DNA from: Candidatus Harrisonbacteria bacterium
GTDB lineage: Bacteria > Patescibacteriota > Minisyncoccia > UBA6257 > 1-14-0-10-44-23
Length of the DNA stretch: 55,779 nucleotides
Reading direction: 5' to 3'
Assembly: GCA_023255625.1 (NCBI GenBank)
Contig: JAHFLF010000004.1
Location: 1 to 55,779 of the forward strand
Shown: one piece after another, positions 36,594-55,779 of the stretch
Layout of the letters: the number at the start of each line of letters is the position of its first letter
Numbering within the stretch: position 1 is the stretch's first letter
Made by a program: the position numbers and the translations under genes
The notes under the pieces: generated by a model
Database searches by the model: none
The model's input: only the letters and a program-made list of their open reading frames with translations
Told to the model about the DNA's origin: nothing

Positions 36594-36615
36594 ATTAGCC
36601 GATATACATCCTGGA

Positions 36616-36687: not shown

Positions 36688-36708
36688 AAAACTATAAAAT
36701 AAAATTGA

Positions 36709-36739: not shown

Positions 36740-36775
36740 GCGCTCGACGGGGCGAGCTTTGTGATTCGGCAGTGA

Positions 36776-37267
36776 CTAAGCCACCGCCCTCTTCCCCTCA
36801 CCCTCCGCTTCGGAAACTGCCGCCTTCTTCGTGCCCGGCCTCGCCTCTCCCAAGCCACTGCGGTAGGAGTTGATCAGCTCCCGCCAATCGGCCAGGTCCT
36901 CAAGCACGACGACGATGCCCTGCATGTACCGCATCGTTGCGGCACGCACCCGAGATCCGCCGGATGGATTTCCCACTGGAATCGTAATGCTGGTCCGCAG
37001 CACCACGACAAGACCGGTGTCAGACCGAGAAAGCTCGATCTTGCTTGGCCGTTCCTCGTCAGAACAACTGGCCAGTACCTGGGCTCGCTTGTCCACCCAG
37101 AGCTGGCCGATCTGGTGCGTCCGCGGACCCTTGACGACAAGGGCGTCGCTTGCGAACACGAACCCGACCTCTCCGTGTCGTGTGTCAGCCAACCACTCTT
37201 CGAGCGTGGGATAGAGCTCGAGTGGCAACAGGTCATCGAGATGACCATTCTCTGAACCATCACTCAT
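36776..37267 (-). CDS. GC-rich orphan protein 1 (163 aa, cytoplasmic, no recognisable family), probably horizontally acquired
   Basis: ATG at 37267 is preceded by AGGAGG at 6 nt. G/C-biased third positions in this frame only. It has its own terminator. It is flanked by family-2 hairpins B and C. Confidence 0.6.
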   Translation of the reverse strand: MSDGSENGHLDDLLPLELYPTLEEWLADTRHGEVGFVFASDALVVKGPRTHQIGQLWVDKRAQVLASCSDEERPSKIELSRSDTGLVVVLRTSITIPVGNPSGGSRVRAATMRYMQGIVVVLEDLADWRELINSYRSGLGEARPGTKKAAVSEAEGEGKRAVA

Positions 37268-37346
37268 GACCACCTCCTGGAAACGGACACCACCGACGCG
37301 GCGGTATCACCATGTCTTAATATACACCTGCTAAAATATTTTGGCC

Positions 37347-37422
37347 AGAAACCTAAAAGTTCCCGCCAAAGGGAGCAGTAAAAGGTACCCCTGCTCATCT
37401 TGGCGGGAACTTTTAGGTTTCT
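37347..37422. repeat. Family-2 nested hairpin C: perfect 23-bp outer stem around the core agggagcagtaaaaggtacccctgctcatc
   Basis: Arms agaaacctaaaagttcccgccaa / ttggcgggaacttttaggtttct. Same orientation as B, and it shares cccgccaa|core|ttggcggg with B. Confidence 0.85.
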
Positions 37423-37430
37423 GTTTTACA

Positions 37431-37462
37431 CCCAAAACCCGCCAGAAAAGGCGGGTTTTGGG
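37431..37462 (-). terminator. Hairpin downstream of the 37483..39342 gene
   Basis: cccaaaacccgcc-agaaaa-ggcgggttttggg, 20 nt after the stop. Weak U-tract. Confidence 0.55.
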
Positions 37463-37482
37463 TTGATTACTAAACTTTGCGT

Positions 37483-43010: not shown

Positions 43011-45389
43011 CTATTGATAACTAACACTGGCAATCTGCAACGAACCAACCAAAGAGGTATCCGCGCCGGCACTTAGTCCGATGTCAGACGGTTGAGCAAT
43101 TGAAATTGCGAGCGTATCCGCTGCATTAGCTTGGTTTTTGAATTTCGTTGAGTTGACTAACACGCGCATATTCACCGACTGACCCTTGCCAAGAGCCAGG
43201 TTGGTGTCAAAAGTTACCGCGCAGACAGAATTTTCATCTGGCGTACAAAATTCCGTACCTGCACTACCGACCGCACTACCATTCGCCGTTTTTAAAACTA
43301 CACCGAAGGGCGCGCCGACGGCGGTACCGGAAAAGGTCAGAGTTAACTGCTCTAATTTTGTCGCCTGCTGTGCTGATCCAAAGAATGAAATACTGGCGAC
43401 CTCGTCTCCGGTCTTTCGAACCCGATTGGTCGTTGGCGAAATTGCGGTTCCATTCATGCTGACTCGCAGCGACTCAATCCTTAATGTTTGTCCCGGCGCG
43501 TTGCCATTCACAATCACCGGCTCGTCTGCTCGGCCGATGGCATCTATGTCCGAATTATTTGCGACGCTAAACGCGTGTTGCGAGCCAAGAATCGGCGCAG
43601 CGGCTACCGAGCCACGCAAAATTAGTGTTCGACTCTGACTTTTGCCAACAATAAACTGCTTGGCAAACTTAAATGGGATTCGATTTCCGGTCGCTTTTAA
43701 ATCGGTGCCGGCGACCATGCTGCCTACCTGCCCACTCCCCTCCCACAAACCATAGTTTGTAAATGATTCCAATGTATTGGCTCCGGTCATGGCGTCAGTT
43801 AGTGTGATACTCCGGACAATCACATCGCCATTACTGTCTGCCGCCAGCTTAATCCACAAAAGATCAATATTGCTGGTGCCGGCGATTAACTTGGGAGTTG
43901 TGCCGATCTGGATTGCAGAAACCGAAAGGGTTGGTGAAACTGGCGTTGGCCGTGAACCGCTGGACACCGCTCCGGCCGGACTCTGACCGACTTGCGTATT
44001 AACATTAGTTGACGAACCAATAGGAACTGTTGAACCCGAAGATGAGCCGGATGCCGTGGCCGACAAAATTGTTACGGTCTGGCCATGAATCGTCTGAATA
44101 AAATTCGGCTCACTGACGGTACTACCAGACACATTCAAGTACCAACCCTCCAAATGCAGCAGAGAAGGATATGTGCCGGAAACTGATGCCGGCGCGATAT
44201 TGGCAAATGCTTCAATCGTTATAGAACGACCGCGGCTGACAGTTATCGGCGGCTGCGTAAAACCGATGGATATGTCGCCGTTATTAACCACCGGCTCAAT
44301 CTGACCGAACTGTTTTCCATCTACCTTCAAAATTAAATTTTCCAATTTAGCTCCATTCGATTCATCTAGTTTACGCAAGATCAGCTTGCCAATCGTAATA
44401 TCCGAGTCCGCCGAATTTGTAATCGAATAACTGGCCAATTTTTGGTTAGAAGCACCGATTTTCACTGAAACCGGACCAAAACTTTTCTGTAAAAATGCGG
44501 TTGGCCTGACCGGCGCGTTTAAAACAATCAGTCCTTTGTAATTTAAACCGAAAGGGTATCCTCCGCTACCTCCGGCGCGTTGGGTCAGTTCAAATCTAAA
44601 CTCATTGTCGCCTTGCTTTAAAAATTTAGCGATATCCAACGAATTATTCTGCCGTGACTTAGCAGTTGCACTAAAGACCTCCTGCTTATTAATAAGCAAC
44701 TTAGTCGGTAAATTGGGGGCTTCAAAATTAATGTTCGCGGAACTGACTGTTCCACTTATGCGAACATTCTTAGTAAAAACAATCTGCTGATTCGCAACGA
44801 TCTTATTGGCCGACTGGCTGGTGTTTCGAACACTGATCCATTTTGCTCCGGCCATCGGCTCGTTTGCTCCTTGTAGTTTTACCATCGTCACACCGGTGCC
44901 TTCAATCGCCCGAGAAAGCGCCGTAGCTCTTGTCATTTCCTTGTTGACAGAAAATTCCCTGCCGCCAACCGTAATCCTAGCTCTCGCCGATGGAGCCACT
45001 ACCTTTTCTCCGCTGACCGGATTTATGACAAAATACTTGAAACCCTCGGAATGTCCATCGTTGTCAGAAACTGACTCCTTGTTTATCGGCAATACAGAAA
45101 TTGAATATTTTTCCCTTCCGTCGCTGACCAAATCAATGACCATTGGTTCGGTGCTGGCTGATCCGATCGACAAGCTAGTTGCAGGCGCAAAATAAGCCGC
45201 CTGCGACTGCTCGAAATTAGCCGAACGGTTAGCGACATAAACGATGCCCAGCCCCATGCCAGCAACGATACCCACTATCGCCCAAGCATACCAACTGTGA
45301 ACGCGATGTTTACCGACGAGTGTAAAATCCTTATGTATCTCTCTAACTACTGCGTCGGTTAAATTTTCTGAATTATGAGAATTGCTCAT
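43011..45389 (-). CDS. Large N-terminally anchored surface protein, beta-rich, no recognisable domain
   Basis: 792 aa. TM segment WYAWAIVGIVAGMGLGIVYVA after about 35 cytoplasmic residues. The remainder is Ser/Thr/Asn/Gly-rich and looks extracellular. Confidence 0.8.
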   Translation of the reverse strand: MSNSHNSENLTDAVVREIHKDFTLVGKHRVHSWYAWAIVGIVAGMGLGIVYVANRSANFEQSQAAYFAPATSLSIGSASTEPMVIDLVSDGREKYSISVLPINKESVSDNDGHSEGFKYFVINPVSGEKVVAPSARARITVGGREFSVNKEMTRATALSRAIEGTGVTMVKLQGANEPMAGAKWISVRNTSQSANKIVANQQIVFTKNVRISGTVSSANINFEAPNLPTKLLINKQEVFSATAKSRQNNSLDIAKFLKQGDNEFRFELTQRAGGSGGYPFGLNYKGLIVLNAPVRPTAFLQKSFGPVSVKIGASNQKLASYSITNSADSDITIGKLILRKLDESNGAKLENLILKVDGKQFGQIEPVVNNGDISIGFTQPPITVSRGRSITIEAFANIAPASVSGTYPSLLHLEGWYLNVSGSTVSEPNFIQTIHGQTVTILSATASGSSSGSTVPIGSSTNVNTQVGQSPAGAVSSGSRPTPVSPTLSVSAIQIGTTPKLIAGTSNIDLLWIKLAADSNGDVIVRSITLTDAMTGANTLESFTNYGLWEGSGQVGSMVAGTDLKATGNRIPFKFAKQFIVGKSQSRTLILRGSVAAAPILGSQHAFSVANNSDIDAIGRADEPVIVNGNAPGQTLRIESLRVSMNGTAISPTTNRVRKTGDEVASISFFGSAQQATKLEQLTLTFSGTAVGAPFGVVLKTANGSAVGSAGTEFCTPDENSVCAVTFDTNLALGKGQSVNMRVLVNSTKFKNQANAADTLAISIAQPSDIGLSAGADTSLVGSLQIASVSYQ

Positions 45390-45430
45390 ATGCTTTGGTT
45401 ATAGCGTTAAATAATAATTGATTCATTTAA

Positions 45431-45826
45431 TTATAGCGCATCGAGAACTCGATTAACAGCCGCGTCGGCCTCTTTATTCTGTTCGCGTGGCACATGGGTA
45501 AATGAAACTGATTTGAACTGACCGCAAAGCCGCCGGACTGATTCAAAAATCGGCCTTAAGCCGGCATTTTTAACTTTGTAACGGCCGGTCAGTTGCCGCT
45601 GTGCCAGCTCGCTATCCAGTCGAACCTCTACTGCCGCGTCTAACGCATTGTCGCCGGCTTCAGCAAGTGCCTTTTCGAGCGCCAGTTGAATCGCGGTATA
45701 TTCAGCGACATTGTTCGTGGTTTTACCCAAATACTTTCCATAAGATTTACCATTCACAGTATAACCGGCAGCAGCCGGTCCGGGGTTACCTCGGCTACCC
45801 CCATCGGTATAGATTAGGAAATGCAT
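45431..45826 (-). CDS. rnhA: Ribonuclease HI
   Basis: MHFLIYTDGGSRGNPGPAAAGY ... TNNVAEYTAIQLALE ... REQNKEADA. The ATG at 45826 is preferred because the TTG at 45835 lies inside repeat T1. Confidence 0.88.
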   Translation of the reverse strand: MHFLIYTDGGSRGNPGPAAAGYTVNGKSYGKYLGKTTNNVAEYTAIQLALEKALAEAGDNALDAAVEVRLDSELAQRQLTGRYKVKNAGLRPIFESVRRLCGQFKSVSFTHVPREQNKEADAAVNRVLDAL

Positions 45827-45937
45827 AATTTTCAATTTCTAATTTTTAATTTTCAAACAATGACTTAATGTCTAATTTCAAAATTTTTAAATTGAAAATT
45901 GTTTAGAAATTAGAAATTGAAAATTAGAAATTTATTT
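45827..45937. repeat. T element copy 1 (AT-rich, about 100 nt, imperfect long hairpin)
   Basis: aattttcaatttctaatttttaattttcaaacaatg ... attgtttagaaattagaaattgaaaattagaaattt. It fills the whole spacer from the exonuclease stop (45938) to the rnhA ATG (45826). Confidence 0.85.
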
Positions 45938-46486
45938 TTAAAATTCCAATAATTTTAAAAATACCCGGTAGGTTGTCCGCGCATCATCCAGCGCGCGGTG
46001 CTGCGTGCCCGGATCAATCTGGAAATGCGACGACATCTCGGAAAGCGAAAATCTTTTAAACTTCGAATTATTTCGAAGTTTGCTCCAGCCGAGCGAAAAT
46101 GTATCCAGTCCTTTGTAGAAATAGTTTGGTTTTAATCCGCACTCCTCTAAAGATTTTTTTAAAAACATCATGTCTACGGCCAAATTTTGGCCAACCAGCA
46201 TACAACCCTCTGTGTGCTGTAAAAATTGCTCCAAGCCGGTTTTTAGATCTACCGCCTCGGCCCAATCCGGTTTATTGTATCCGGAAATCGCCAGCGCCTC
46301 TGAATTAGCATCCGCCAACCGCACGGGCTTTATCTTAATCACACCCTCCTCAATGACTTCAAAAGTGCCGGCCCGCGCTTTAACAAAACCAATCTCAACT
46401 ATTTCGTGTTTCAAATCCAAACCGGTTAGTTCAGTATCGAAAAAAACCAAGTCCATTTCCTTTACATCAATTTTGTCTTTTTCCAT
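45938..46486 (-). CDS. DnaQ-like 3'-5' exonuclease (DEDDh)
   Basis: ExoI LVFFDTELTGLD, ExoII MLVGQNLAVDMMFL, ExoIII HRALDDARTTYRVF. Confidence 0.85.
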   Translation of the reverse strand: MEKDKIDVKEMDLVFFDTELTGLDLKHEIVEIGFVKARAGTFEVIEEGVIKIKPVRLADANSEALAISGYNKPDWAEAVDLKTGLEQFLQHTEGCMLVGQNLAVDMMFLKKSLEECGLKPNYFYKGLDTFSLGWSKLRNNSKFKRFSLSEMSSHFQIDPGTQHRALDDARTTYRVFLKLLEF

Positions 46487-46500
46487 TTTGTTATCTGTCT

Positions 46501-46538
46501 TAACTAACTAACCAACTAACTAATTAACCAACTAACTC
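46501..46538. repeat. Stop-codon-rich (aactaacc)n-like spacer containing the pgk stop
   Basis: taactaactaaccaactaactaattaaccaactaactc. The 13-mer aaccaactaactc is identical to 48433-48445. The minus strand reads TAG/TAA in all three frames. Confidence 0.6.
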
Positions 46539-47653
46539 TTAGTACCCTTGAGTGCCTCCACCCCAGGCAACTTCTTGCCGCCGAGCACGGCTAGCATAGC
46601 TCCGCCGCCGGTTGAGAGAAAATCAAACTTGTCCGTCATTCGCGACTGCACAATAAATTGGATAGTCTCGCCCCCACCAACTACTGAAAACGCTTTACTT
46701 TTTGCAATTGCTTTTGCGATTAGTGCCGTTCCGGCTCGATACCGGGGATCTTCAAATACACCCATTGGCCCGCTCCAGATAATAGTCTTTGCACCCTTGA
46801 TAACCTCTGTAAATTGCCGAACGGTTAATGGCCCAATATCACAAATCTTACCGGTTTCGCCAACGATCCAGTCTACCGGGACGATGACCTTTTTATCATG
46901 CAAGCTTTTTTTAACTGCCGGCAAAATCGAGGTGTCAATTTTTGAATAACCGATATCAACTCCGCGGGCGTGCAAAATAGTATTGGCGGCTACGCCGCCA
47001 ACCAAAAAATGCTCCGCCTGGCTGTGCAAATTTTTGATGACCATAAACTTATCGTCGGCCTTGCCGCCACCGATAATAACTACCAGTGGCTTGGCCGGAT
47101 TTTTCATCACCCGATTCAGCTGTTCCATCTCCTTGAGCAACAAAAAACCGGCGTAGGAGGGCAGCAATTTGGGTAGTTCGGTTATTGAGGCGCTCGGATG
47201 ATGGTTGACGGCAAATGCATCATTAACATAGATATTGCCAAGCGAAGCGAGCTGTGCGGCAAATGCCTTCTGCGCGCCTGGCTGCGTAGACTGTTCTCCG
47301 GATAGAAACCTCATATTCTCCAGCATAAATAAACTGCCGGGCCGGGCGGCCCCAACCTGGGCTCGGATATGATCAAAATTAAAATGGTCAAAGAGCATAA
47401 TGCTCTGGCTGGCCCGCCGGCGCAAAAAAGGGATCATTGCGCGCAAACTTAGCTCTGGCATAACCGTGCCATCAGGCCGGCCGCGATGACTTAATAGAAT
47501 GACGCGTGCTTTTTGTGCAAGTAAATATTTGATCGTAGGCAGCGAACGCTCCAAACGCAGCACCTCTTTAGGCGTTTCAACATTAAAATCAACCCGTACT
47601 AGAACGGTCTTACCAGAAAGATTTTTCAGTGTTTCAACAGATTTAAGAGCCAT
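46532..47653 (-). CDS. pgk: Phosphoglycerate kinase
   Basis: GKTVLVRVDFNV, ILLSHRGRP, VIIGGGKADDKF, GGVAANT and FLSTGGGAMLAVLGGKKLPGVEAL. Confidence 0.95.
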   Translation of the reverse strand: MALKSVETLKNLSGKTVLVRVDFNVETPKEVLRLERSLPTIKYLLAQKARVILLSHRGRPDGTVMPELSLRAMIPFLRRRASQSIMLFDHFNFDHIRAQVGAARPGSLFMLENMRFLSGEQSTQPGAQKAFAAQLASLGNIYVNDAFAVNHHPSASITELPKLLPSYAGFLLLKEMEQLNRVMKNPAKPLVVIIGGGKADDKFMVIKNLHSQAEHFLVGGVAANTILHARGVDIGYSKIDTSILPAVKKSLHDKKVIVPVDWIVGETGKICDIGPLTVRQFTEVIKGAKTIIWSGPMGVFEDPRYRAGTALIAKAIAKSKAFSVVGGGETIQFIVQSRMTDKFDFLSTGGGAMLAVLGGKKLPGVEALKGTKS

Positions 47654-47787
47654 GAGTAATCGCTAATACGCGAATAGCTAATAATGCAAATCGGACTATT
47701 GATAGTATAGCAAATCATATTCAAAAAGTCGTCAAAAATATCAAAAAACATGCAAAATAGGCGTTTCTAACTACTTGACAGCTTTAC

Positions 47788-47817
47788 TTGACAAATGAGC
47801 ATAAAGTATGGTATAAT
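47788..47817 (+). promoter_or_regulatory. Near-consensus promoter with extended -10, driving the GC-rich unit 47824-48192
   Basis: TTGACA (47788-47793), 18 nt, TGgTATAAT (TG 47809-47810, TATAAT 47812-47817). A second TTGACA is at 47775-47780. Confidence 0.65.
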
Positions 47818-47888
47818 ATATAAACGCCGAGTAAGCACTGTGCTGAACGGCAAGGTGGGGCTTATGCCCCCTCTCGGAGGGCTCGCTC

Positions 47889-48131
47889 ATGACGAAGTTC
47901 GGATGGCTCGTCTTCGCCGTCGCTGCGACGGCGCTCGTTCTCCCGTTCAACAAGACCGCCTTCCTGGCGGCAGTCGCGGTGGCGCTTGCGTGCGCCGCGA
48001 TCGCGGGCGCCACGAAGCGCCGGCTCCCGGCGAGCAGAAACACGATGGAGCTGGCTTTCGCGGGGTTCATCCCGCTGGCCTGCTACATCGCGGGCTCCTT
48101 GCCCACGGCCCTACCGGTATTCATCCGGTAG
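47889..48131 (+). CDS. GC-rich orphan protein 3: 80-aa hydrophobic membrane protein
   Basis: ATG preceded by GGAGGG at 7 nt. Strong G/C third-position bias in this frame only. Sequence MTKFGWLVFAVAATALVLPF ... AVAVALACAAIAG ... FIPLACYIAGSL. Followed by a canonical terminator. Confidence 0.55.
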   Translation: MTKFGWLVFAVAATALVLPFNKTAFLAAVAVALACAAIAGATKRRLPASRNTMELAFAGFIPLACYIAGSLPTALPVFIR

Positions 48132-48156
48132 CGTCAGCGCCACGACACGGCGCAGT

Positions 48157-48192
48157 TCTGGTCGGTCTCCGCGAGGAGACCGACCAGATTTG
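48157..48192 (+). terminator. Canonical intrinsic terminator of the GC-rich unit
   Basis: 14-bp perfect stem tctggtcggtctcc / ggagaccgaccaga, GCGA loop, then tttgtttat. Confidence 0.8.
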
Positions 48193-48209
48193 TTTATATT
48201 AAAACAGAT

Positions 48210-48391
48210 GAGATTCCTCGGCTTCGGAATGACGGCAAAGATGGATTGCCGCGGAGTACCTCGCAATGACAAGCGGGGCGAGATTCTTCGCTGCGTTCAG
48301 AATGACCACCCTCCTTCGCTAAAGCTACGGAGGGCAAGCATGAAAATGGGTTGCCAAAAACATTCCCGGGCGCGCCAGTCGGCGCGCCCGG
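48210..48391. repeat. Cluster of short hairpin repeats (gagattc.tcg...ggaatgac type, ccctcc...ggaggg type, and an 11-bp GC palindrome)
   Basis: gagattcctcggcttcggaatgac (48210-48233), gagattcttcgctgcgttcagaatgac (48280-48306), ccctccttcgctaaagctacggaggg (48309-48334), ccgggcgcgcc-agtc-ggcgcgcccgg (48366-48391). Confidence 0.55.
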
Positions 48392-48410
48392 ACATTGATT
48401 TATCTTTTTA

Positions 48411-48445
48411 CCAACTAACCAAATAACTAAGCAACCAACTAACTC
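48411..48445. repeat. Stop-codon-rich (aactaacc)n-like spacer downstream of secY
   Basis: ccaactaaccaaataactaagcaaccaactaactc. Shares the 13-mer aaccaactaactc with 46526-46538. Confidence 0.55.
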
Positions 48446-48453
48446 CCCCCCCT

Positions 48454-49725
48454 CTACCCGATGGCATCGTACTCTCTTATCGTTAACTGTGAATTAACCT
48501 GACGGGCGATTTCCAGCGCAACTGAAACCACAATTAAGAGTGCCGTACCGCCGATAGTAAAGCTCTGGATGCCGCTAAAAATCTGCACCAGGTTCGGCAG
48601 AATGGCCACGATGCCCAAAAAGATTGCTCCAAAAAAAGTAATCTTTCCGCTCGTGCTCTTTAAAAAGTGTTCGGTCGGTTCACCCGGGCGGATGCCTGGT
48701 ATGAAACCGCCGGACTGCTGCAGGTTCTTGGAAAGTTCGCCCGGATTAAAGGTGATCGAGGTGTAAAAATAAGTGAAGGCAACCACGAGCACGAAATAGA
48801 TCGCAGCGTAAATGCTCTGATTGTTGAAAATGCCCGAAACAAAATTTTGTAAGGTGATTGAAAGATCCACGGAAAAAACCGAAATTAACTGGGCAAATAG
48901 TTGCGGGAAAAGCATAATCGAAATCGCGAAAATAATTGGAATTACGCCGGCCTGGTTAACTTTGAGCGGCAGATAGCTAGTTACGCCGCCATACATTTTG
49001 TTACCCCGGACCCGTTTGGCATAGGTAACCGGCACCTTGCGCTCGCCCTCGCTAACAAAGACTACGCCGGCGATTACGACTACGGCGATTAAAGCAAAGA
49101 TAATATAAGTAACCAGCATCTCGTCGGTATAGCTGAAAAAAAGTTTTTGAATGACCTGCGGCAAACGGGAAACAATGCCGGCAAAGATAATCAAAGAAAT
49201 GCCGTTGCCAAGTTTCTGCTCGCTAATCAGCTCACCGATCCACATTAATATGCAGGAGCCGGCGGTAATCACGACCAAACTGGCAATTAACTGAAAACCG
49301 GCCAAAGTCGGTAGTACTCCCTGATTCGCCAGCAAATTTAAAAACGCATAACCCTGAACTAAAGCCAGCGGCACAGTTAAATAACGAGAGTATTGATTAA
49401 ATTTCTGACGGCCGAGCGCGCCCTCCTCGTAGTAAAGCTGCTTCATGCGCGTCGACATCATGGTCATGAGCTGCATGATAATCGAACCGGTAATATAGGG
49501 GCCCACGCCAAGCATCATAATCGAAAGGTTGGAAAGACCGCCGCCGGAGAAAAGGTTCAAAAAACCAAGCAACTGGTTCTGGCCAAGTACCGAGGCCAGC
49601 TGGGCCGCGTCAATACCCGGAACCGGAATGGTTGCTAAAAGACGAAAGCCGATCAAAAGTCCGGCCACAATGAAAACTTTTTTGCGGAGCTCGGGAATTC
49701 GGAAGAGTTGGAGGAATTTATTCAT
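48454..49725 (-). CDS. secY: Preprotein translocase subunit SecY
   Basis: 423 aa, 10 TM segments, GIDAAQL, LFSGGGLSNLSIMMLGVGPYITGSIIMQL, GGFIPGIRPGEPT. Confidence 0.97.
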   Translation of the reverse strand: MNKFLQLFRIPELRKKVFIVAGLLIGFRLLATIPVPGIDAAQLASVLGQNQLLGFLNLFSGGGLSNLSIMMLGVGPYITGSIIMQLMTMMSTRMKQLYYEEGALGRQKFNQYSRYLTVPLALVQGYAFLNLLANQGVLPTLAGFQLIASLVVITAGSCILMWIGELISEQKLGNGISLIIFAGIVSRLPQVIQKLFFSYTDEMLVTYIIFALIAVVVIAGVVFVSEGERKVPVTYAKRVRGNKMYGGVTSYLPLKVNQAGVIPIIFAISIMLFPQLFAQLISVFSVDLSITLQNFVSGIFNNQSIYAAIYFVLVVAFTYFYTSITFNPGELSKNLQQSGGFIPGIRPGEPTEHFLKSTSGKITFFGAIFLGIVAILPNLVQIFSGIQSFTIGGTALLIVVSVALEIARQVNSQLTIREYDAIG

Positions 49726-49824
49726 AAATTTTCAATTTCTAAGTTTCAATTTTCAAACAATGATTTAATTTCGGAATTTCTAAATTGGAAATTGTTTAGA
49801 AATTAGAAATTGAGAATTAGAAAT
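49726..49824. repeat. T element copy 2
   Basis: aaattttcaatttctaagtttcaattttcaaacaatgatttaatttcggaatttctaaattggaaattgtttagaaattagaaattgagaattagaaattta. It spans exactly from the L15 stop (49825) to the secY ATG (49725). Confidence 0.88.
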
Positions 49825-50241
49825 TTATTGCACTTTCCCGCCGGCCGTCTCAATCGCCTTCTGGGCCGACTTCGAAACAGAAATTCCGGCCAAAGTAACT
49901 GGCTTCTTTAGCTCACCATTGGCTAAAACCTTAACCGGTTGGCCACGCTTTGCATAACCAGCCGCAACGATTGACGCCAATGTTACCGGCGATGCCTTAA
50001 TTTTTCCCAGCATCGGTAATGTCAGGATGGCAGCCGGAAGCTCCATCGGCTTATTGGCATATCCGCGCAGTTTCGGCAGCCGCTGAATATATTCGCGCAT
50101 GGCCGGACGAATTCGGTGACCGGAGCGCGACTTTTGACCCTTAGTACCCTTGCCGGCGGTTGTCCCGCGTTTACCACCTCGGCCCACGCGGGCTCTTTTG
50201 TCTGCGTTCGCGTTTTTTGGTTTTAACTGGTGAAGTTGCAT
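49825..50241 (-). CDS. rplO: 50S ribosomal protein L15
   Basis: MQLHQLKPKNANADKRARVGRGGKRGTTAGKGTKGQKSRSG. Confidence 0.93.
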   Translation of the reverse strand: MQLHQLKPKNANADKRARVGRGGKRGTTAGKGTKGQKSRSGHRIRPAMREYIQRLPKLRGYANKPMELPAAILTLPMLGKIKASPVTLASIVAAGYAKRGQPVKVLANGELKKPVTLAGISVSKSAQKAIETAGGKVQ

Positions 50242-50256
50242 AGAATTTTAAAAAAC

Positions 50257-50284
50257 TTAGAACTGATAACTAAGAACTGATAAC
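50257..50284. repeat. Tandem 14-nt repeat spanning the rpsE stop
   Basis: ttagaactgataac / taagaactgataac. Inverted relatives gttctaagttctaagttcttag at 50319-50340 encode the S5 C-terminal tail (KNLELRTK). Confidence 0.55.
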
Positions 50285-51067
50285 TTTTGTTTCGACTTTT
50301 CCTGCTTCCCCGTCCTTTGTTCTAAGTTCTAAGTTCTTAGTTTGTTTGCGCGGCTTGAGCATCTTTAGCGCCTCATAAGTTGCGAGCGCGTTAGTAACCT
50401 GGTTCGGCGTGCGCCCGAGCGTCTTAGCCGTAATGTCTTTGATACCGGCTAGCGCCAAAACCGCCCGAGCCGCACCACCGGCGACTAATCCGTGTCCATC
50501 CTTAGCGGGCTTTAAACGGATGCAGGCAGCTGAATATTTTGCCTCAACTTCATGCGGGATTGTCCGCTTAGAAAGTGGCACGGTAATCACATGCTTACGC
50601 GCATCCCGCTGTGCCTTCGCGAGTGCCTGCTGCAGGTCGATTCCCTTACCCATGCCAACTCCTACTCGGCCTCGTAAATCACCAATGACGATAGTTGCCC
50701 GGAAACGAAATCTTTTACCGCCGGCCATAACACGAGCAACGCGACGCATATCTAAAGTCTGCTCCTGGAATTCATCTTTTTTCACAAATGGCCGATTGCC
50801 GCCCGGACCACCCGGACGACGCGAACCGCCTGCTCCACCGCCAGGACCGCGACCTGCGCCGCGCCCGCCTCCGGCTTGCCCGCCTCTGGCGGGACCACGG
50901 CCGCTGGCTTGCCCGCCTCTGGCGTGGCCAAAAGCTGGCCGTGCTGCAGGGGCTGCAGGCGCAGAAGAAGCTGCGGCGGGGACGGCTGACTGCTGGACTT
51001 GCCCTCCTAAATTTCCTCCGGAAACTTTGGCGGGTGAAGTATTCTGTTGTGGGTTAACATCTTCCAT
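50270..51067 (-). CDS. rpsE: 30S ribosomal protein S5 with a Gly/Arg/Pro/Ala-rich N-terminal extension
   Basis: Core RVARVMAGGKRFRFRATIVIGDLRGRVGVGMGKG ... GLVAGGAARAVLALAGIKDITAKTLG. The ATG at 51067 (MEDVNPQQ) is preferred because the TTG at 51193 runs through repeat R1 and into rplR. Confidence 0.92.
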   Translation of the reverse strand: MEDVNPQQNTSPAKVSGGNLGGQVQQSAVPAAASSAPAAPAARPAFGHARGGQASGRGPARGGQAGGGRGAGRGPGGGAGGSRRPGGPGGNRPFVKKDEFQEQTLDMRRVARVMAGGKRFRFRATIVIGDLRGRVGVGMGKGIDLQQALAKAQRDARKHVITVPLSKRTIPHEVEAKYSAACIRLKPAKDGHGLVAGGAARAVLALAGIKDITAKTLGRTPNQVTNALATYEALKMLKPRKQTKNLELRTKDGEAGKVETKVISS

Positions 51068-51073
51068 ATTTTT

Positions 51074-51114
51074 TATTCGTACTTTCGTGATTTGATTCGT
51101 TATTCGTAGCTCTC
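51074..51114. repeat. R element copy 1 (L18 to S5 spacer)
   Basis: tattcgtactttcgtgatttgattcgttattcgtagctctc. The adjacent cta at 51114-51116 is the rplR TAG stop. Confidence 0.85.
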
Positions 51115-51482
51115 TAAAACTGTAGCCCTCCCGCTCGAGCTCCTTCGGCGAGTGCCCGAACCTGTCCATGGTAAGCATATCGTCCGCGATCAAACACGAC
51201 TGTCTTTACTCCCTGCTTAATTGCGCGTTCGGCAACAATCTTGCCAAGCTCAACTGCGCGATCAACTCGCGCACCCGGAACTTTTGATTTGACGGCTTTA
51301 ATCTCGGAAAGTTTGGCCGAAGCAACCGTCTTGCCCAAAGAGTCATCAATGACCTGCGCGTACAAATTCTGATTGCTGCGATAAACAGAAAGACGCGGGC
51401 GACGCGCAAAACCCTTAAGATGCCCGCGAATGCTGTGGGCGCGCCGAGCTCGAGTCTGATTTTTTTTGATGCTTCTTTTCAT
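51114..51482 (-). CDS. rplR: 50S ribosomal protein L18
   Basis: RARRAHSIRGHLKGFARRPRLSVYRSNQNLYAQVIDD ... VVFDRGRYAYHGQVRALAEGARAGGLQF. Confidence 0.95.
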   Translation of the reverse strand: MKRSIKKNQTRARRAHSIRGHLKGFARRPRLSVYRSNQNLYAQVIDDSLGKTVASAKLSEIKAVKSKVPGARVDRAVELGKIVAERAIKQGVKTVVFDRGRYAYHGQVRALAEGARAGGLQF

Positions 51483-51517
51483 GTTTCTTGTTTATCTTTT
51501 TATTTTATAGCTTATGC

Positions 51518-51578
51518 GATATGCTGACCAGTTGTGCGAGGATAGAACCCCGTTCCTCGCGCGACTGGCCAGCATATC
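51518..51578. repeat. Family-1 hairpin F in the L6 to L18 spacer: 24-bp stem (3 mismatches) around the core cgagg-atagaaccccgtt-cctcg
   Basis: Arms gatatgctgaccagttgtgcgagg / cctcgcgcgactggccagcatatc. The 25-nt core gcgaggatagaaccccgttcctcgc is identical to the reverse complement of the D core. Confidence 0.8.
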
Positions 51579-51587
51579 AGCGTTCCG

Positions 51588-52130
51588 CTATGCTGCTCCC
51601 GCCACCTTCTTACCTTCCTTACGCCGGACCTGTTCGCCAAGATAACGGATACCCTTACCCTGATACGGCTCCGGTTTTTTAAATTGACGAATCTTCGCTG
51701 CGGTCTGTCCGACAACCTGCCGATCAATTCCGGAAATTGTAATAAAACTTTTTTCCAAAACGATTGTAATTCCGGCCGGCGGGACAAATTTGATCGGATG
51801 AGTAAAACCGAGCGCCAGAACGAGCGTCTTCCCCTCCATCGCCGCTTTGTAGCCAATACCCTGCACATCCAGCTTCTTTTCAAAACCGGTAGTAACGCCA
51901 GTAACAGCATTGCTCAAATGCGCAGCCATTGTACCCCAATTTGCCCGTGCTTGCACCTGCGTCGTGGCAACCGTCAAGGTCAGCACTCCACCCTCAAGAT
52001 GTACTTTGACATAAGGAAGAATCGGCACGACGAGTGAGCCGTTCTTACCTTTGATAGTAACCGCCGTTTCGTTAACGGTTGCGGTTACGCCCTCGGGCAA
52101 TGCAATTGGTTTTTTTCCGATCTTACTCAT
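51588..52130 (-). CDS. rplF: 50S ribosomal protein L6
   Basis: MSKIGKKPIALPEGVTATVNETAVTIKGKNG ... KKPEPYQGKGIRYLGE. Confidence 0.95.
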   Translation of the reverse strand: MSKIGKKPIALPEGVTATVNETAVTIKGKNGSLVVPILPYVKVHLEGGVLTLTVATTQVQARANWGTMAAHLSNAVTGVTTGFEKKLDVQGIGYKAAMEGKTLVLALGFTHPIKFVPPAGITIVLEKSFITISGIDRQVVGQTAAKIRQFKKPEPYQGKGIRYLGEQVRRKEGKKVAGAA

Positions 52131-52140
52131 ATACTTTTTT

Positions 52141-52179
52141 TATTCGTACTTTCGTAAAAATTCGTTATTCGTAGCTCTA
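52141..52179. repeat. R element copy 2 (S8 to L6 spacer)
   Basis: tattcgtactttcgtaaaaattcgttattcgtagctcta. Its terminal cta is the rpsH TAG stop. Confidence 0.85.
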
Positions 52180-52557
52180 CCAGATTTCAAATAGCAACTG
52201 TCCTCCAACCTTTTGCTTGCGCGCCTGGCTACCGGTCATAATCCCCTTTGGGGTAGAGATAACCGACATGCCAAAACCCTGCTTGACCGGGCGCAAATCT
52301 GCATAACCAGAATACAGACGACGGCTGGGCAGACTCAAAAACTTCATACCGCCAATCGCCCCTTTCTCGCTATCATATTTCAAATCAACTTCCAGGACGC
52401 GCTTGGGTGTGCGCCCTTTCTTAGCGACACCGGCGACAAAACCACGAGCAGACAGAAGTTCGGCAATTTCAAAATCCATATTCGAATAAGGGAGCTTCAC
52501 GCTCTGCTTCTTTGCCTTCTGGGCATTCTTCAATTTTGTAAGGAGATCGATATACAT
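52177..52557 (-). CDS. rpsH: 30S ribosomal protein S8
   Basis: MYIDLLTKLKNAQKAKKQSVKLPYSNMDFEIAELLSARGFV ... GGQLLFEIW. Confidence 0.95.
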   Translation of the reverse strand: MYIDLLTKLKNAQKAKKQSVKLPYSNMDFEIAELLSARGFVAGVAKKGRTPKRVLEVDLKYDSEKGAIGGMKFLSLPSRRLYSGYADLRPVKQGFGMSVISTPKGIMTGSQARKQKVGGQLLFEIW

Positions 52558-52666
52558 AGTGTAAAATTTTCAATTTCTAATTTTCAATTTTCAAACAATG
52601 TTTTTAAACATTGGGAAATTTTCAAATTAGTTCATTGTTTAGAAATTAGAAATTAATCATTAGAAA
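52558..52666. repeat. T element copy 3 (S14 to S8 spacer), central part divergent
   Basis: ..aaaattttcaatttctaattttcaattttcaaacaatg ... cattgtttagaaattagaaattaatcattagaaa. It spans from the rpsZ stop (52667) to the rpsH ATG (52557). Confidence 0.85.
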
Positions 52667-52852
52667 TTACCAAGAAGCTTTCTTAACTCCCGGAATCTGA
52701 CCGCGGCTGGCAAGCTCGCGAAAACAGATACGACAGATACCGAAGAGCCGCATGAAACCATGTTTACGCCCGCAACGAAAACAACGCCGCACAATCCGGC
52801 TGCTAAACTTGGGCGTCTTATTTGCTCTTGCAATAACTGATTTCTTAGCCAT
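52667..52852 (-). CDS. rpsZ: 30S ribosomal protein S14, type Z (zinc-binding)
   Basis: 61 aa with [23 protein letters not shown] (CxxC ... CxxC). Confidence 0.93.
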
Positions 52853-52862
52853 ACTTGTTTAC

Positions 52863-53390
52863 TTACTTGTTTGCACTTGTGCTACTTTTTACTTTTTTTA
52901 CCTCCTTCTCAAACGGTATGCCTAATCCCTTATAGAAGACAACGGCCGCCGCATTGTCCATGCGCTGTTTCGGAACTACGGTAACCTCTATTCCAAATGG
53001 CGCACGAACCTTCTCCAGCACAATCTCCGGATATACTGTGTGCTCTCTAATGCCAAAGGTCAAGTTGCCATCCCGATCAATTCCAGAAATTTTGATACCA
53101 TGAAAATCGCGGACACGCGGCAAAACTATCGATACGGTACGCGCCACAAACTGACGGGCCCGAGCTCCACGCAAAGTACTCTTCAAACCAATGACAACGC
53201 CTTCGCGCAGCTTGAAACCGGAAATAGAAATACGCGCAGGCCGCTGCTCGCCCTTCTGCCCGGTGATAGCCGCAAACTGCTCTTCAATTTCCGGAAGAAG
53301 TTTGCCAACAAAGTCGGGCGTGTTGGTAGCCAGCTTGCCAAAGCTGCTGTTCACGACCACCTTTTCAATTGTATTTTGAATCGTTTTCAT
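52863..53390 (-). CDS. rplE: 50S ribosomal protein L5
   Basis: KVVVNSSFG ... ITGQKGEQRPARISISGFKLREGVVIGLKSTLRG ... LPRVRDFHGI ... GNLTFGIREHTVYPEI. Confidence 0.95.
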   Translation of the reverse strand: MKTIQNTIEKVVVNSSFGKLATNTPDFVGKLLPEIEEQFAAITGQKGEQRPARISISGFKLREGVVIGLKSTLRGARARQFVARTVSIVLPRVRDFHGIKISGIDRDGNLTFGIREHTVYPEIVLEKVRAPFGIEVTVVPKQRMDNAAAVVFYKGLGIPFEKEVKKVKSSTSANK

Positions 53391-53414
53391 AATCTCTTTC
53401 TTATATTCGCGGAA

Positions 53415-53642
53415 CTATTTAACCATGACATTACTTCGATCAATCGGCCTGGCAATGCTAACCATCTGACCCTTCTCGCCCTGCTTAGTCGCCCGCTTGT
53501 GTCTCTTGACCATATTAATCCCCTCAACGAGCACTTTATTTTCTTTTGGAAAAACACGAATTACCTTACCGCTCTTGGTGCGGTCTTTTCCTTTCAGAAT
53601 AAGGACGGTGTCTCCTTTTTTAATGCTCATTTTCATATTCAT
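53415..53642 (-). CDS. rplX: 50S ribosomal protein L24
   Basis: KOW motif IKKGDTVLILKGKDRTKSGKVIRV. Three in-frame ATGs (53642, 53636, 53630) exist, and the true start may be 53630 (MSIKKGD). Confidence 0.9.
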   Translation of the reverse strand: MNMKMSIKKGDTVLILKGKDRTKSGKVIRVFPKENKVLVEGINMVKRHKRATKQGEKGQMVSIARPIDRSNVMVK

Positions 53643-53646
53643 ATTC

Positions 53647-53686
53647 TATTCGTACTTTCGTAATATATTCGTTATTCGTAGCTCTA
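53647..53686. repeat. R element copy 3 (L14 to L24 spacer)
   Basis: tattcgtactttcgtaatatattcgttattcgtagctcta. Its terminal cta is the rplN TAG stop. Confidence 0.85.
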
Positions 53687-54052
53687 CACTACCTCCTCCG
53701 CTAAAGTAAAAATCTGCTCAAACCCCTTCTCCTTGATCTCACGGGGAATTGGTCCGAAAACACGCGTGCCTTTCGGAACCTTCTTGTCGTCGACAATCAC
53801 AACTGCATTTTCATCAAAACGGATGACCGTGCCATCGGAACGGCGAAGCGGCGCAGCCGTCCGTACAACAATACACTTCACGATATCCTTCTTCTTAATG
53901 GCCTTGCGCGGTTCTGCCTGCTGCACCGAAGCATTAACCATGTCGCCCAGTTTTGCATAACGCTTGCGGCTGCCGCCGTAAACCGTAAATACACGAATAA
54001 GTTTCGCGCCGGTGTTATCTGCAACTTTTACAACTGAACGAATTTGAAGCAT
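53684..54052 (-). CDS. rplN: 50S ribosomal protein L14
   Basis: MLQIRSVVKVADNTGAKLIRVFTVYGGSRKRYAKLGDMV ... IRFDENAVVIVD. Confidence 0.96.
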   Translation of the reverse strand: MLQIRSVVKVADNTGAKLIRVFTVYGGSRKRYAKLGDMVNASVQQAEPRKAIKKKDIVKCIVVRTAAPLRRSDGTVIRFDENAVVIVDDKKVPKGTRVFGPIPREIKEKGFEQIFTLAEEVV

Positions 54053-54058
54053 ATCTTT

Positions 54059-54328
54059 TTAGTTTGCTAAATTATCAACTTCCGCAGAGACTGCTTTCTT
54101 AACTAAGCTCACAATCTTAAAATACTTATCTTTCGATAACGGACGCGTCTCCTCTATAACCACTTGATCGCCAGTCTTGTATTCGTTTTTCTCATTGTGT
54201 GCCTTAAAACGCCGAGTTACCGTATAGTATTTAAGATACTTCGGGTGCTTTTTTTGATAAGAAACCGCGACTACCGCAGTTTTCATCATTTTATCGGAGA
54301 CGACAGTTCCGTTCAATTGGCGCTTCAT
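54059..54328 (-). CDS. rpsQ: 30S ribosomal protein S17
   Basis: LNGTVVSDKMMKTAVVAVSYQKKHPKYLKYYTVTRRFKAHNEKNEYKTGDQVVIEETRPLSKDKYFKIV. Confidence 0.94.
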   Translation of the reverse strand: MKRQLNGTVVSDKMMKTAVVAVSYQKKHPKYLKYYTVTRRFKAHNEKNEYKTGDQVVIEETRPLSKDKYFKIVSLVKKAVSAEVDNLAN

Positions 54329-54379
54329 ATAAGTTTTCTATATTAACCTAGAATGAGGATTTTTTCAAGTTTTCTGATG

Positions 54380-54622
54380 TTATTTAACTTTTTTTGCTGC
54401 CCGTGATGGCAAAACAGAAAGCTCACCCTGGCTTTTCGAGTTGGCTGCGGTCAGGATGCGGGCCAAATCCCTGCGTAAAGTCAGACGGGCTTTGACATTC
54501 TTAATCTTGCCGCCGGCAACTTCGCGGCGCACCTGCCAAATTTTCTCACGCATTTCACCGGCCTCTTTCTGCAATTCAGCCGCCGATCGGTTATTCAATT
54601 TTGTGATATCCTGTTTTTTCAT
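54380..54622 (-). CDS. rpmC: 50S ribosomal protein L29
   Basis: MKKQDITKLNNRSAAELQKEAGEMREKIWQVRREVAGGKIKNVKARLTLRRDLARILT. The ATG at 54622 is preferred because the upstream ATG at 54661 lies inside repeat R4. Confidence 0.9.
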   Translation of the reverse strand: MKKQDITKLNNRSAAELQKEAGEMREKIWQVRREVAGGKIKNVKARLTLRRDLARILTAANSKSQGELSVLPSRAAKKVK

Positions 54623-54633
54623 ATTCTTATTTT

Positions 54634-54672
54634 TATTCGTACTTTCGTACAGATTCGGCATTCGTAGCTCTA
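54634..54672. repeat. R element copy 4 (L16 to L29 spacer)
   Basis: tattcgtactttcgtacagattcggcattcgtagctcta. Its terminal cta gives a second in-frame TAG immediately after the rplP stop. Confidence 0.85.
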
Positions 54673-55086
54673 CTAATCTTTCTTAATAAATCGCGTCCGT
54701 AGCGGCAACTTAAAACCAGCCAATCGAAGTGCGGCGCGGGCCTGTGTTTCAGTAACACCGTCCATTTCAAAAAGAATTCGGCCGGGACGAACCGGGAAAA
54801 CATAGTGATCAACAGAGCCCTTACCGCCACCCATTGTAACCTCCGGCGGCCGCTCCGTAATCGGCTTATCTGGAAAAATACGAATAAACACCTTGCCGGC
54901 GCGCTTAACCGAATTAGTAATCGTGCGCCGCGCGGCCTCAATCTGACGAGAATTAACCCAAGCCGAAGAAGTGGCCTTAAGCCCAAAAGTACCGTAAGCC
55001 AGCCGCGTACCGCGCACCTCAATCTGGCGTGTCTTGCGACGGCCTTTCATCCACTTACGATGTTTTACTTTTTTAGGAACTAACAT
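54673..55086 (-). CDS. rplP: 50S ribosomal protein L16
   Basis: [56 protein letters not shown]. Confidence 0.96.
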
Positions 55087-55187
55087 ATGGATAAATTAAT
55101 TTTCAATTTCTAATTTTCAATTTTCAAACAATGATTTAATTTAGGAATTTCTAAATTGGAAATTGTTTAGAAATCGAAAATTGGAAA
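55087..55187. repeat. T element copy 4 (S3 to L16 spacer)
   Basis: ..aattttcaatttctaattttcaattttcaaacaatgatttaatttaggaatttctaaattggaaattgtttagaaatcgaaaattggaaa. It spans from the rpsC stop (55188) to the rplP ATG (55086). Confidence 0.88.
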
Positions 55188-55779
55188 TTATTTTTTCTGT
55201 TTATCTTTCGAAAAAATTAGCCCTTTATATATCCAAACTTTGATGCCAACTGTTCCGTAAGTACAGTTCGCAGTCGCCGTGCCGTAGTCAATGTCAGCGC
55301 GCAGAGTTGTAAGCGGTAATGTCCCCTTGGCCAAAAATTCAGTTCGAGAAATTTCGTTCCCGTCCAAACGGCCACCCATTTTGACCTTAATTCCCTTAAC
55401 ATCCCGATTCTGAAGGGCATTCTCGATCGCCTTCTTCATGGTGCGACGAAATGGCATGCGTTTTTCGATTTCCCAGGCAATACTCTGGGCAACATACGCC
55501 GAAGCAATTTCAGTGCGCTTCAGCTCTTCGATAGTTACGGAAAGATGAATCTTCGGAGCTTTCGGACTCTTCACTTTCTGCAATTTAGAAAGTTCACCGG
55601 TGATTTGTTTGGTCAAATCTTCGATACCGGTACCGCCGCGGCCGATAATAAAACCGGGCCTGGCCGCCTTGATCGCAACTCGATAAGCATTGTTGGCGCT
55701 GCGCTCAATGATCACACTCACAACCCCGGCCAGCTTAATTTTCTCTTCAATAACTCGCCGAATCAAAACATCCTCCTGC
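55188..55779 (-). CDS. rpsC: 30S ribosomal protein S3, N-terminus beyond the window edge
   Basis: KH domain (IIERSANNAYRVAIKAARPGFIIGRGGTGIEDL) and the S3 C-terminal domain (GIKVKMGGRLDGNEISRTEF ... GTVGIKVWIYKG). The frame is open to the window end, so the M at 55766 in the ORF track is internal. Confidence 0.93.
   Translation of the reverse strand, partial: QEDVLIRRVIEEKIKLAGVVSVIIERSANNAYRVAIKAARPGFIIGRGGTGIEDLTKQITGELSKLQKVKSPKAPKIHLSVTIEELKRTEIASAYVAQSIAWEIEKRMPFRRTMKKAIENALQNRDVKGIKVKMGGRLDGNEISRTEFLAKGTLPLTTLRADIDYGTATANCTYGTVGIKVWIYKGLIFSKDKQKK

Follow-up and report, generated by a model that had tools for sequence, protein, structure and literature searches.

Sense-oriented ACGAAU-word elements fill four spacers of a Harrisonbacteria ribosomal-protein operon and belong to a widespread intergenic repeat family

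In the S10/spc ribosomal-protein operon of a Candidatus Harrisonbacteria genome, four of about 19 gene junctions are filled by copies of one non-coding element of about 40 nt, here called R, which consists of four ACGAAU-type words arranged in two boxes. The copies lie in a 55,779-nucleotide stretch of contig JAHFLF010000004.1 (assembly GCA_023255625.1, positions 1 to 55,779; hereafter the window), and together with locus L001, which supplies the upstream part of the operon, about 66 kb of genome sequence was examined. The window corresponds to the end of a metagenomic contig of 126 kb (ENA ERZ27280176). All four copies are intercistronic and in mRNA sense, their occurrence is not random, and the family to which they belong is widespread, conserved, and absent from Rfam. 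As an explanation, we tentatively favor the view that the R copies are solo arms from a family of intergenic repeats that spread by copy-and-paste, which would have been kept in the A-rich orientation as single-stranded leaders free of Shine-Dalgarno (SD) sequences and are possibly bound by a factor.

The four copies were found exactly where an earlier note on this DNA had placed them, and Pfam assigned all eight flanking genes in agreement with that note:

54634 to 54672, minus strand: R copy 1 in the L16/L29 spacer, with the L29 ATG at 54622
53647 to 53686, minus strand: R copy 2 in the L14/L24 spacer, the UAG of the element being the L14 stop codon
52141 to 52179, minus strand: R copy 3 in the S8/L6 spacer, the UAG of the element being the S8 stop codon, with the L6 ATG at 52130
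51074 to 51114, minus strand: R copy 4 in the L18/S5 spacer, with the S5 ATG at 51067

On the minus strand, which is the transcribed one, the consensus is UAG-AGCU-[ACGAAU]A[ACGAAU]-linker(4-6 nt)-[ACGAAA]GU[ACGAAU]A, followed by an A-rich tail and AUG. Copy 1 reads UAG AGCU ACGAAU GC CGAAU CUGU ACGAAA GU ACGAAU A. The two boxes and the complete sequences from stop to start are:

54653 to 54669, 53667 to 53683, 52160 to 52176, and 51095 to 51111, minus strand: box A (AGCU-ACGAAU-N-NCGAAU, 17 nt)
54634 to 54648, 53647 to 53661, 52141 to 52155, and 51074 to 51088, minus strand: box B (ACGAAA-GU-ACGAAU-A, 15 nt), identical in all four copies
L16/L29, minus strand: UAG AGCUACGAAUGCCGAAU CUGU ACGAAAGUACGAAUA AAAAUAAGAAU AUG
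L14/L24, minus strand: UAG AGCUACGAAUAACGAAU AUAUU ACGAAAGUACGAAUA GAAU AUG..
S8/L6, minus strand: UAG AGCUACGAAUAACGAAU UUUU ACGAAAGUACGAAUA AAAAAAGUAU AUG
L18/S5, minus strand: UAG-AG AGCUACGAAUAACGAAU CAAAUC ACGAAAGUACGAAUA AAAAAU AUG

Boxes A and B together comprise 32 nt with just two variable positions across the four copies, whereas the linker of 4-6 nt is wholly different in each of them, which suggests that the words are under constraint. Box A is also the portion shared with the two-word versions of a close relative, L167 (ACGAAUUACGAAU). The words are direct repeats spaced at 7, 10-12, and 8 nt with the variable linker in between, and Tandem Repeats Finder at a score of 30 made no call on R. 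The element occupies the whole spacer, and no AUG, GUG, or UUG lies ahead of the real start. A single GCGAAUA word in the 24-nt L24/L5 spacer (53404 to 53410, minus strand) may be a degenerate one-word member, judging from its resemblance to the one- or two-word versions in the relatives L167 and L168.

That these copies are not chance matches was evident from dinucleotide-preserving shuffles, none of which yielded the four copies. The 16-mer TACGAAAGTACGAATA matched all four sites with at most one mismatch, and with up to three mismatches it gave five matches in comparison to 0.45 in the shuffles; the 20-mer TAGAGCTACGAATAACGAAT gave four matches versus 0.00. The bare hexamer ACGAAT was at chance level across the window (38 observed, 37 expected). 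No R copy was present in the approximately 30 other intergenic regions of the window, where ordinary promoters and GC-rich terminators were found instead. The earlier note had pointed to a related GCTACGAAT near the ATG of a giant surface protein. This word is at 34829-34837, one base off the site given there; it is a single match beyond the four copies, with a total of 0.5 expected by chance, and by itself does not reach significance.

The relation of R to the adjacent stop and start codons was partly as previously described. The UAG of the element is the stop codon of L14 and S8 in register, and at L16 it is an in-frame second stop after the gene's own UAG. At L18, the aligned triplet is GAG, and the L18 UAG lies 2 nt upstream of the register of the other copies (UAG-AG-AGCUACGAAU); in the same copy, the base before box B is C and not U. 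The idea that the element supplies the stop fails at L14, which ends with GUG-UAG in the window and also in the relative L163, where a different word array follows, so that this stop is part of the gene itself. The proposed distance of 4-11 nt between the ...ACGAAUA end and the ATG holds for L29 (11 nt), L6 (10 nt), and S5 (6 nt). Copy 2 is followed by AGAAU AUG AAU AUG AAA AUG, and a distance of 4 nt applies to the first ATG only, whereas the likely L24 start is the third in-frame ATG at 53630 (MSIKKGD), 16 nt from the element.

The reported lack of SD sequences was confirmed: none was seen in the operon spacers, there is no GGAGG in the four R-containing spacers, and neither GGAG nor GAGG nor AGGA occurs in any R copy or its tail. 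Outside the operon, promoter-like sequences at 3746-3772, 4780-4826, and 6071-6162 have TATAAT, TATGAT, or TAGACT 6-9 nt before the start codon, which suggests from the sequence that leaderless mRNAs are common in this organism.

The R copies are unstructured, with minimum free energies of -2 to -8 kcal/mol and fold z-scores of -1.4 to +1.3. A GNRA-capped mini-hairpin (UAC-GAAA-GUA) had been suggested, but it would have two to three pairs at most; its third, outer pair is replaced by C.A in copy 4 and by A.A or C.A in many homologues, without any compensating change, and where homologues are palindromic, the segment is paired with the 3' arm. We therefore rejected this hairpin. A scan for promoters (-35/-10) and terminators gave no consensus match inside any R copy, and weak TTGAAA-17-GAAAAT matches fell in a second spacer family of the operon, the F elements described below, at inconsistent distances to starts. 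Rfam searches gave nothing at the gathering threshold in the window and nothing relevant at E<=1 in 45000-55779, and when the window and ten related loci were searched at these two thresholds, there was no match for R, the F elements, or other inserts.

The closest relatives show how variable the occupation of these junctions is. The organism is a Parcubacteria-type member of the Patescibacteria, with Harrison-, Lipton-, and Wolfebacteria as its nearest named relatives, and the near clade, as defined by 72-79% concatenated protein identity and a neighbor-joining tree, has the following word-bearing or empty members:

L167: precisely the four junctions of the window occupied by one or two UUACGAAUA words; otherwise only single words in the long spacers L22/S3 and L15/SecY
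L163: a four-word CACGAA(C/U) solo array at L14/L24 (UAG UGUUCACGAACACACGAACUCACGAAUCACACGAAUAAAACU AUG) and an ACGAAC-word palindrome at L16/L29
L166: three near-identical GCGAAU-word solo arrays at L16/L29, L14/L24, and L6/L18
L168: a word at S8/L6
L164 and L165: every junction free of forward words; only isolated reverse words, one each at S5/L15 (L164) and L15/SecY (L165)

The other spacers of the near relatives are mostly 1-30 nt long. The chance that the window and L167 share the same four of 17 junctions is 1 in 2380, and the recurrence of related word arrays at the four junctions lends support to the earlier interpretation. In this comparison of sequences, the picture that emerges for the near clade is one of recurrence at the same junctions, word variants that would have changed in concert within each genome, growth from one or two to four words, and occasional complete loss. 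Conservation could also be followed in four Moranbacteria species genomes. In six pairs, palindromic orthologues were 86-100% identical, and the element was at or above both flanks in five of the six pairs and below both flanks in one; in the best pair, 110/110 positions of the element were identical as compared to 242/325 in the left and 320/355 in the right flank. These pairs carry an ascertainment bias, as both members had been found by an exact match of 19-28 nt, but the rest of the element is conserved as well.

We also compared the orthologous spacers of about 80 relatives from the Candidate Phyla Radiation (CPR; 48-64% L6 identity), with gene starts assigned heuristically. Spacer lengths ranged from an overlap (-4) to more than 300 nt, and many spacers contained solo arrays or palindromes of NCGAAU words, whereas others carried unrelated inserts. 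CGAAT was the top G/C-containing 5-mer of these ribosomal-operon spacers, with 86 occurrences in 19.7 kb as compared to 257 in 304 kb of coding sequence, i.e., about fivefold the density; its reverse complement ranked second, and ACGAAT was the top 6-mer. The sense orientation that the earlier note had described for the window was also found here: when spacers had at least two words on one strand only, the words were in sense in 21 and in antisense in 3 cases. In short spacers, the last word was 0-17 nt before the AUG. Stops ahead of R-like arrays were a mixture of UAA and UAG. Word-bearing junctions were over-dispersed among genomes, with none in 26 of 44 genomes where 18.7 were expected (P = 0.0004), and three genomes had five to seven.

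To see how far the family extends, 185,579 species genomes were scanned for exact matches to the pattern CGAAT-N3-9-ACGAAAGTACGAAT. The scan gave 81 loci, as compared to about 30 by a rough chance estimate that assumes uniform composition, and roughly a dozen of the loci are inside open reading frames (ORFs). The remaining matches were in Moran-, Sacchari-, Uhr-, Lipton-, Sung-, Harrison-, Berkel-, and Parcubacteria, in unclassified Patescibacteria, and in many Bacteroidota, with multiple copies in several genomes. The motif is thus not restricted to one operon of one genome but present in dozens of other genomes, and the earlier description as a signal of this lineage is too narrow, since no fewer than nine CPR groups share this architecture, as do Bacteroidota and a few other metagenome-assembled genomes (MAGs). 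Although the search pattern did not include the 5' flank, this flank still reads (C/U)UACGAAUUA, at per-position frequencies of up to 0.93, whereas the linker is variable. Conservation across phyla thus extends to the arrangement of R as four words in two boxes.

In most CPR matches, the array is the 5' arm of an interrupted palindrome of 30-40 bp, whose 3' arm consists of AUUCGU words and whose folding free energy (dG) is as low as -66 kcal/mol; these palindromic homologues end with CTACGAA...TTCGTAG. Solo sense copies were also detected, one in the L16/L29 spacer of a Moranbacteria MAG (L077) and one just upstream of an L2 start, assigned by eye (MKSYRPYTPSRR), in a Liptonbacteria MAG (L031). 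No protein family recurred near the 81 loci, and no transposase was linked to them. Likewise, no RAYT-type gene was near any copy, with the window proteins scanned in part, and no consistent target-site duplication was found in 24 palindromic copies, for which the element ends had been defined crudely and automatically. We rejected a phage origin: the only viral matches, five in number, are all in one homologous coding sequence and therefore are a coincidence. In some Bacteroidota MAGs (L055, 3774-4458; L038 and L060), an ACGAAU-word unit is repeated in tandem over several hundred bases, the periods being 49, 96, and 213 nt. In a limited search of the literature on CPR intergenic repeats and on SD usage in Patescibacteria, we found no description of this family.

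How could such elements have come to precede L29, L24, L6, and S5? To our knowledge, it is not known how CPR bacteria start internal cistrons without an SD sequence. In a host where no SD sequences were seen, where the first cistrons outside the operon look leaderless, and whose relatives have mostly tightly coupled ribosomal-protein cistrons, we infer that an array was copied among these four junctions and homogenized between them. The spread could have occurred via copy-and-paste or gene conversion, and the identity of the copies within a genome extends to the non-word connectors. The A-rich orientation may have been retained because it serves as an open leader that is single-stranded on the mRNA and contains no start codon before the real AUG. 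The spacer would thereby separate translationally coupled gene blocks, and ribosomes would begin translating the next cistron there, either afresh or after having terminated on the previous one. A putative sequence-specific trans factor, be it ribosome-associated or another RNA-binding protein, probably recognizes the words, which is suggested by the conserved boxes next to a randomized linker, by the cross-phylum architecture, and by the clustering at the genome level. A stronger version, which we consider rather unlikely, is that ACGAAU arrays are a conserved mRNA signal in lineages that do not use SD sequences (CPR/Patescibacteria and Bacteroidota), in which a putative ribosome-associated or RNA-binding factor would read them as marks for ribosome entry or restart at the first cistron of coupled blocks, the palindromes being a masked or bidirectional form.

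Several observations weigh against a leader function of R. L164, the nearest neighbor of the window in the neighbor-joining tree, has no words at any of the four junctions, and as L165 likewise lacks them there, the R words are dispensable. The tight fit between stop and start proves nothing by itself, because any insert in a short ancestral spacer, as which we take the spacers of 4-27 nt in L163, would abut both codons. The start region was more open in the native than in the reverse-complement sequence at all four junctions (0.86/0.82, 0.55/0.43, 0.51/0.39, and 0.68/0.40), but it was no more open than with mononucleotide shuffles of R, so the openness is due to composition and not to word order. 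In long spacers, the arrays are at the stop end, and across relatives the last word is 0-137 nt from the AUG, which does not fit an SD-like signal at a fixed distance. The fixed relation to the start that had been proposed was thus not found; the arrays are tied to the upstream stop, and 18 of 30 intergenic matches of the genome scan begin about 0-10 nt past a stop (that of the nearest upstream ORF on the same strand). Finally, most family members elsewhere are strong palindromes without strand bias in stability, with a REP- or MITE-like appearance (repetitive extragenic palindromic sequences; miniature inverted-repeat transposable elements). Among 93 strongly folding spacers, there was no bias in stability between sense and antisense (46 versus 40, P = 0.74), and G-U counts likewise showed none. 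Because the two strands of a palindrome are almost identical in sequence, this stability test cannot separate a role at the DNA level from a role at the RNA level.

The main rival explanation is that R is a selfish or neutral repeat, whose copies would be solo remnants or local duplicates of REP- or MITE-like palindromes that are merely harmless at the only tolerated sites, the gaps from stop to start. We regard this as possible but on balance doubtful. It would account for the variable presence among close relatives, including the empty L164 and L165, for copies that are homogeneous within each genome and divergent between genomes (ACGAAU in the window, CACGAAC in L163, and GCGAAU in L166), and for the palindromic forms that occur in either orientation without sense bias. 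It is also in agreement with the clumped, infection-like distribution across genomes, with the crossing of phyla, and with the presence of other families in the same operon, such as the F palindromes, the GUUAG words, and the unrelated inserts of relatives; moreover, contact with both stop and start is automatic when the ancestral spacers are so short. However, a selfish repeat does not readily explain the sense bias of the solo arrays, the conserved boxes with their randomized linker, the same four junctions in the window and L167, and orthologous copies that are mostly at least as conserved as their flanks. Neither target-site duplications nor a transposase or recurrent protein near the 81 loci were found, phage contigs were empty except for the coincidence in one coding sequence, and the copies were confined to a highly expressed operon and not found in the other intergenic regions seen.

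A distributed translational operator appears distinctly unlikely. Here, the words would bind one repressor, for example a ribosomal protein that recognizes a similar rRNA motif, and provide one feedback signal for several cistrons whose coupling had been broken by the spacers. Identical boxes before four cistrons of one operon, word variants that shift in concert per genome, and arrays that are present in some genomes and wholly missing in others, as though they depended on the presence of a trans factor, would fit, and it is well established that S8 and L4 exert autogenous control over the spc and S10 operons. But the operators known so far mimic structured rRNA, which the unstructured R does not, no Rfam ribosomal-protein leader matched, and the same words are found beside non-ribosomal genes in other phyla. 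Still less probable is a site for RNA processing or stability, at which an enzyme of the RNase E/G/Y or MazF type would cut the words to release units with short or no leaders. RNase E prefers sites resembling the GA|AU of each word, R ends 6-16 nt ahead of the starts, the promoters outside the operon have TATAAT 6-9 nt before the ATG as expected for leaderless mRNAs, and the palindromic relatives are plausible substrates of RNase III. Nonetheless, the distance between the last word and the AUG is variable, no sequence feature sets a cleavage site apart from any other A/U-rich stretch, and nothing in our analysis shows the processing role that had been considered earlier. We give very little credit to a binding array at the DNA level with the words as half-sites for a protein such as the ArsR-type regulator encoded at 2794-3060. 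It could draw on the 14-bp palindrome over the -35 region of the regulator's own promoter, on a second copy downstream, and on the symmetry of palindromic family members in DNA; yet direct repeats at 7, 10-12, and 8 nt with a variable linker suit flexible single strands and not a dimer on B-DNA, a sense bias is not expected for a DNA site, and the shared 9-mer GTACGAATA could be a coincidence. Just as improbable is a non-canonical ribosome-binding site, with UACGAAU predicted to pair with an rRNA segment AUUCGUA in SD-less lineages. The position of the last word 0-17 nt ahead of the AUG in short spacers would agree with such pairing, as would the occurrence of the family in CPR and Bacteroidota, two groups that make little use of SD pairing. 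Against it, the words are missing upstream of the other genes of the window and in some close relatives, their spacing from the AUG varies, and the arrays follow the stop in long spacers. A search of 164 loci for a 16S rRNA 3' end gave no match.

R is one among several low-complexity spacer families of the operon, none of which was found in the approximately 30 other intergenic regions. The most prominent of the others are the F elements, A/T-rich palindromes of about 100 nt whose arms are period-7 tandem repeats (AATTTTC / TTAGAAA) that Tandem Repeats Finder does call:

55087 to 55187, 52558 to 52666, 49726 to 49824, and 45827 to 45937 of the window: F elements
5026 to 5128 and 6056 to 6109 of locus L001: F elements

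Five full copies are at S3/L16, S14/S8, L15/SecY, RNaseT/RNaseH, and L3/L4, and a half copy is at L23/L2. The copies are 75-98% identical, the upstream stop TAA directly abuts the element in three of the five full copies, and F elements are absent from the six nearest relatives. Spacers of GUUAG/GUUGG words that are 80% identical to each other follow right after the UAG stops of SecY and PGK (48395-48445 and 46488-46538), and at the position of such a spacer L163 has GUGUAACGU words. Further word hairpins are at L2/S19, S19/L22, and L22/S3. The L6/L18 spacer (51483-51587, minus strand) contains a G+C-rich 30-bp hairpin (dG -45.7 kcal/mol, z -8.2) without a U tract, which is unlike all other operon spacers and absent in relatives.

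Inserts of other kinds were observed in the CPR relatives. A structured insert of 150-310 nt is present in S8/L6 of L086, L129, L135, L139, L145, L148, and L149, and also in L14/L24 of L145 and L18/S5 of L148. It begins with GGGCTTTGT...ACAAAACCTTTACCC and ends with ...GGGTGCTCAA...TTGGC directly before the ATG, and from these positions it looks mobile between ribosomal-protein junctions; a search of the carriers L086, L129, L139, L145, L148, and L149 against Rfam gave no match. In L094, L124, and L130, inserts of 106-148 nt in L14/L24 or S8/L6 are bounded by the inverted repeats CCCGTTAGAAA...TTTCTAACGGG.

Among the other features of the window, the 88-amino-acid ArsR/HTH_20 regulator (2794-3060, minus strand) is preceded by a perfect 14-bp palindrome, TATTCGTACGAATA (3116-3129), over the -35 region of a TGTATAAT promoter, and a second, 12-bp copy lies just past the regulator stop (2746-2757). 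This palindrome is probably the operator of the regulator, and it shares GTACGAATA with box B of R. The segment 42579-42953 (plus strand) matches the class A bacterial RNase P RNA over its full length (88.5 bits, E 1.9e-26) and is probably a divergent CPR RNase P RNA, which the default Rfam search missed because the score is below the gathering score of 100. Two related long hairpins (GGAAACTCCGAAGTCCCGCCAAGATGAGCA... and a partner) lie in consecutive intergenic regions at 36513-37482 beside ordinary terminators, and their Rfam matches are at chance level. Within the operon, S5 (50270-51067, minus strand) has an N-terminal extension of about 100 amino acids with Ala/Pro/Gly-rich stretches, and the stretch between S5 and L15 (50242-50269) lacks an L30 gene, as is usual for CPR. 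Between SecY and PGK, the opposite strand has a perfect TG-extended TTGACA-18-TATAAT promoter (47788-47817, plus strand), which faces an ORF of 135-146 amino acids that breaks the otherwise co-directional operon; an opposite-strand gene is at the same place in L163 and in the P0003 contig.

Which of the readings of R applies matters beyond this operon. Should a factor indeed recognize the arrays, they would offer a handle on SD-free internal initiation in CPR and a portable expression part for tractable Patescibacteria and Bacteroidota. If they are selfish, even the most conserved bacterial operon would be open to several repeat families in reduced genomes, with consequences for gene calling, operon prediction, and MAG assembly.

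R resembles several known systems without matching any of them fully. The REP sequences and bacterial interspersed mosaic elements (BIME) of enterobacteria and pseudomonads are short repeats in extragenic DNA that frequently lie no more than about 15 nt from a stop, where they can affect the upstream gene. As imperfect palindromes in operon transcripts without target-site duplication, they fit the palindromic family members of other CPR genomes. The window copies, in contrast, are single unstructured arms whose homologues elsewhere form stems of 30-40 bp, the arms consist of repeated words, and the four copies seen in the sequence read are all in one operon. Bacterial MITEs (Correia, RUP, and ERIC/IRU) share with the R family that they are non-coding, 50-150 nt long, bounded by terminal inverted repeats, located between genes, co-transcribed, and variably present among relatives. 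R differs from them in its solo arms without an inverted partner within the operon, in the lack of a known parent insertion sequence, and in its conservation across phyla. Cyanobacterial STRR heptamer repeats are long perfect tandems dispersed genome-wide, for which we know of no described relation to stop or start codons; like the R family, they are intergenic arrays of short words (7 nt in STRR) with lineage-specific variants. The A-rich, "Kozak-like" SD-independent leaders of Bacteroidetes reflect a compositional preference at fixed positions. R and its tail are likewise A-rich and unstructured upstream of the AUG, but R is a conserved, repeated sequence of 40 nt, the word order of which adds no openness over shuffles.

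In this comparison, the closest published analogue of R is the TAACTGA heptamer array, to which R is similar without being a member. These direct-repeat arrays of Beggiatoaceae, Cyanobacteria, and some Bacteroidetes consist of two to six forward words just upstream of SD-less starts, including those in ribosomal-protein operons (MacGregor 2015, PMC4679880). Their distribution is patchy across phyla and no transposase is associated with them; a binding protein (S1, Csp, or CsrA) was proposed but not demonstrated (PMC4679880). The word of R is a different one, R is not a perfect head-to-tail tandem but has two boxes and a linker, and the R family is often palindromic and abuts stop codons. What both have in common is the arrangement of forward words directly upstream of SD-less starts inside ribosomal-protein operons.

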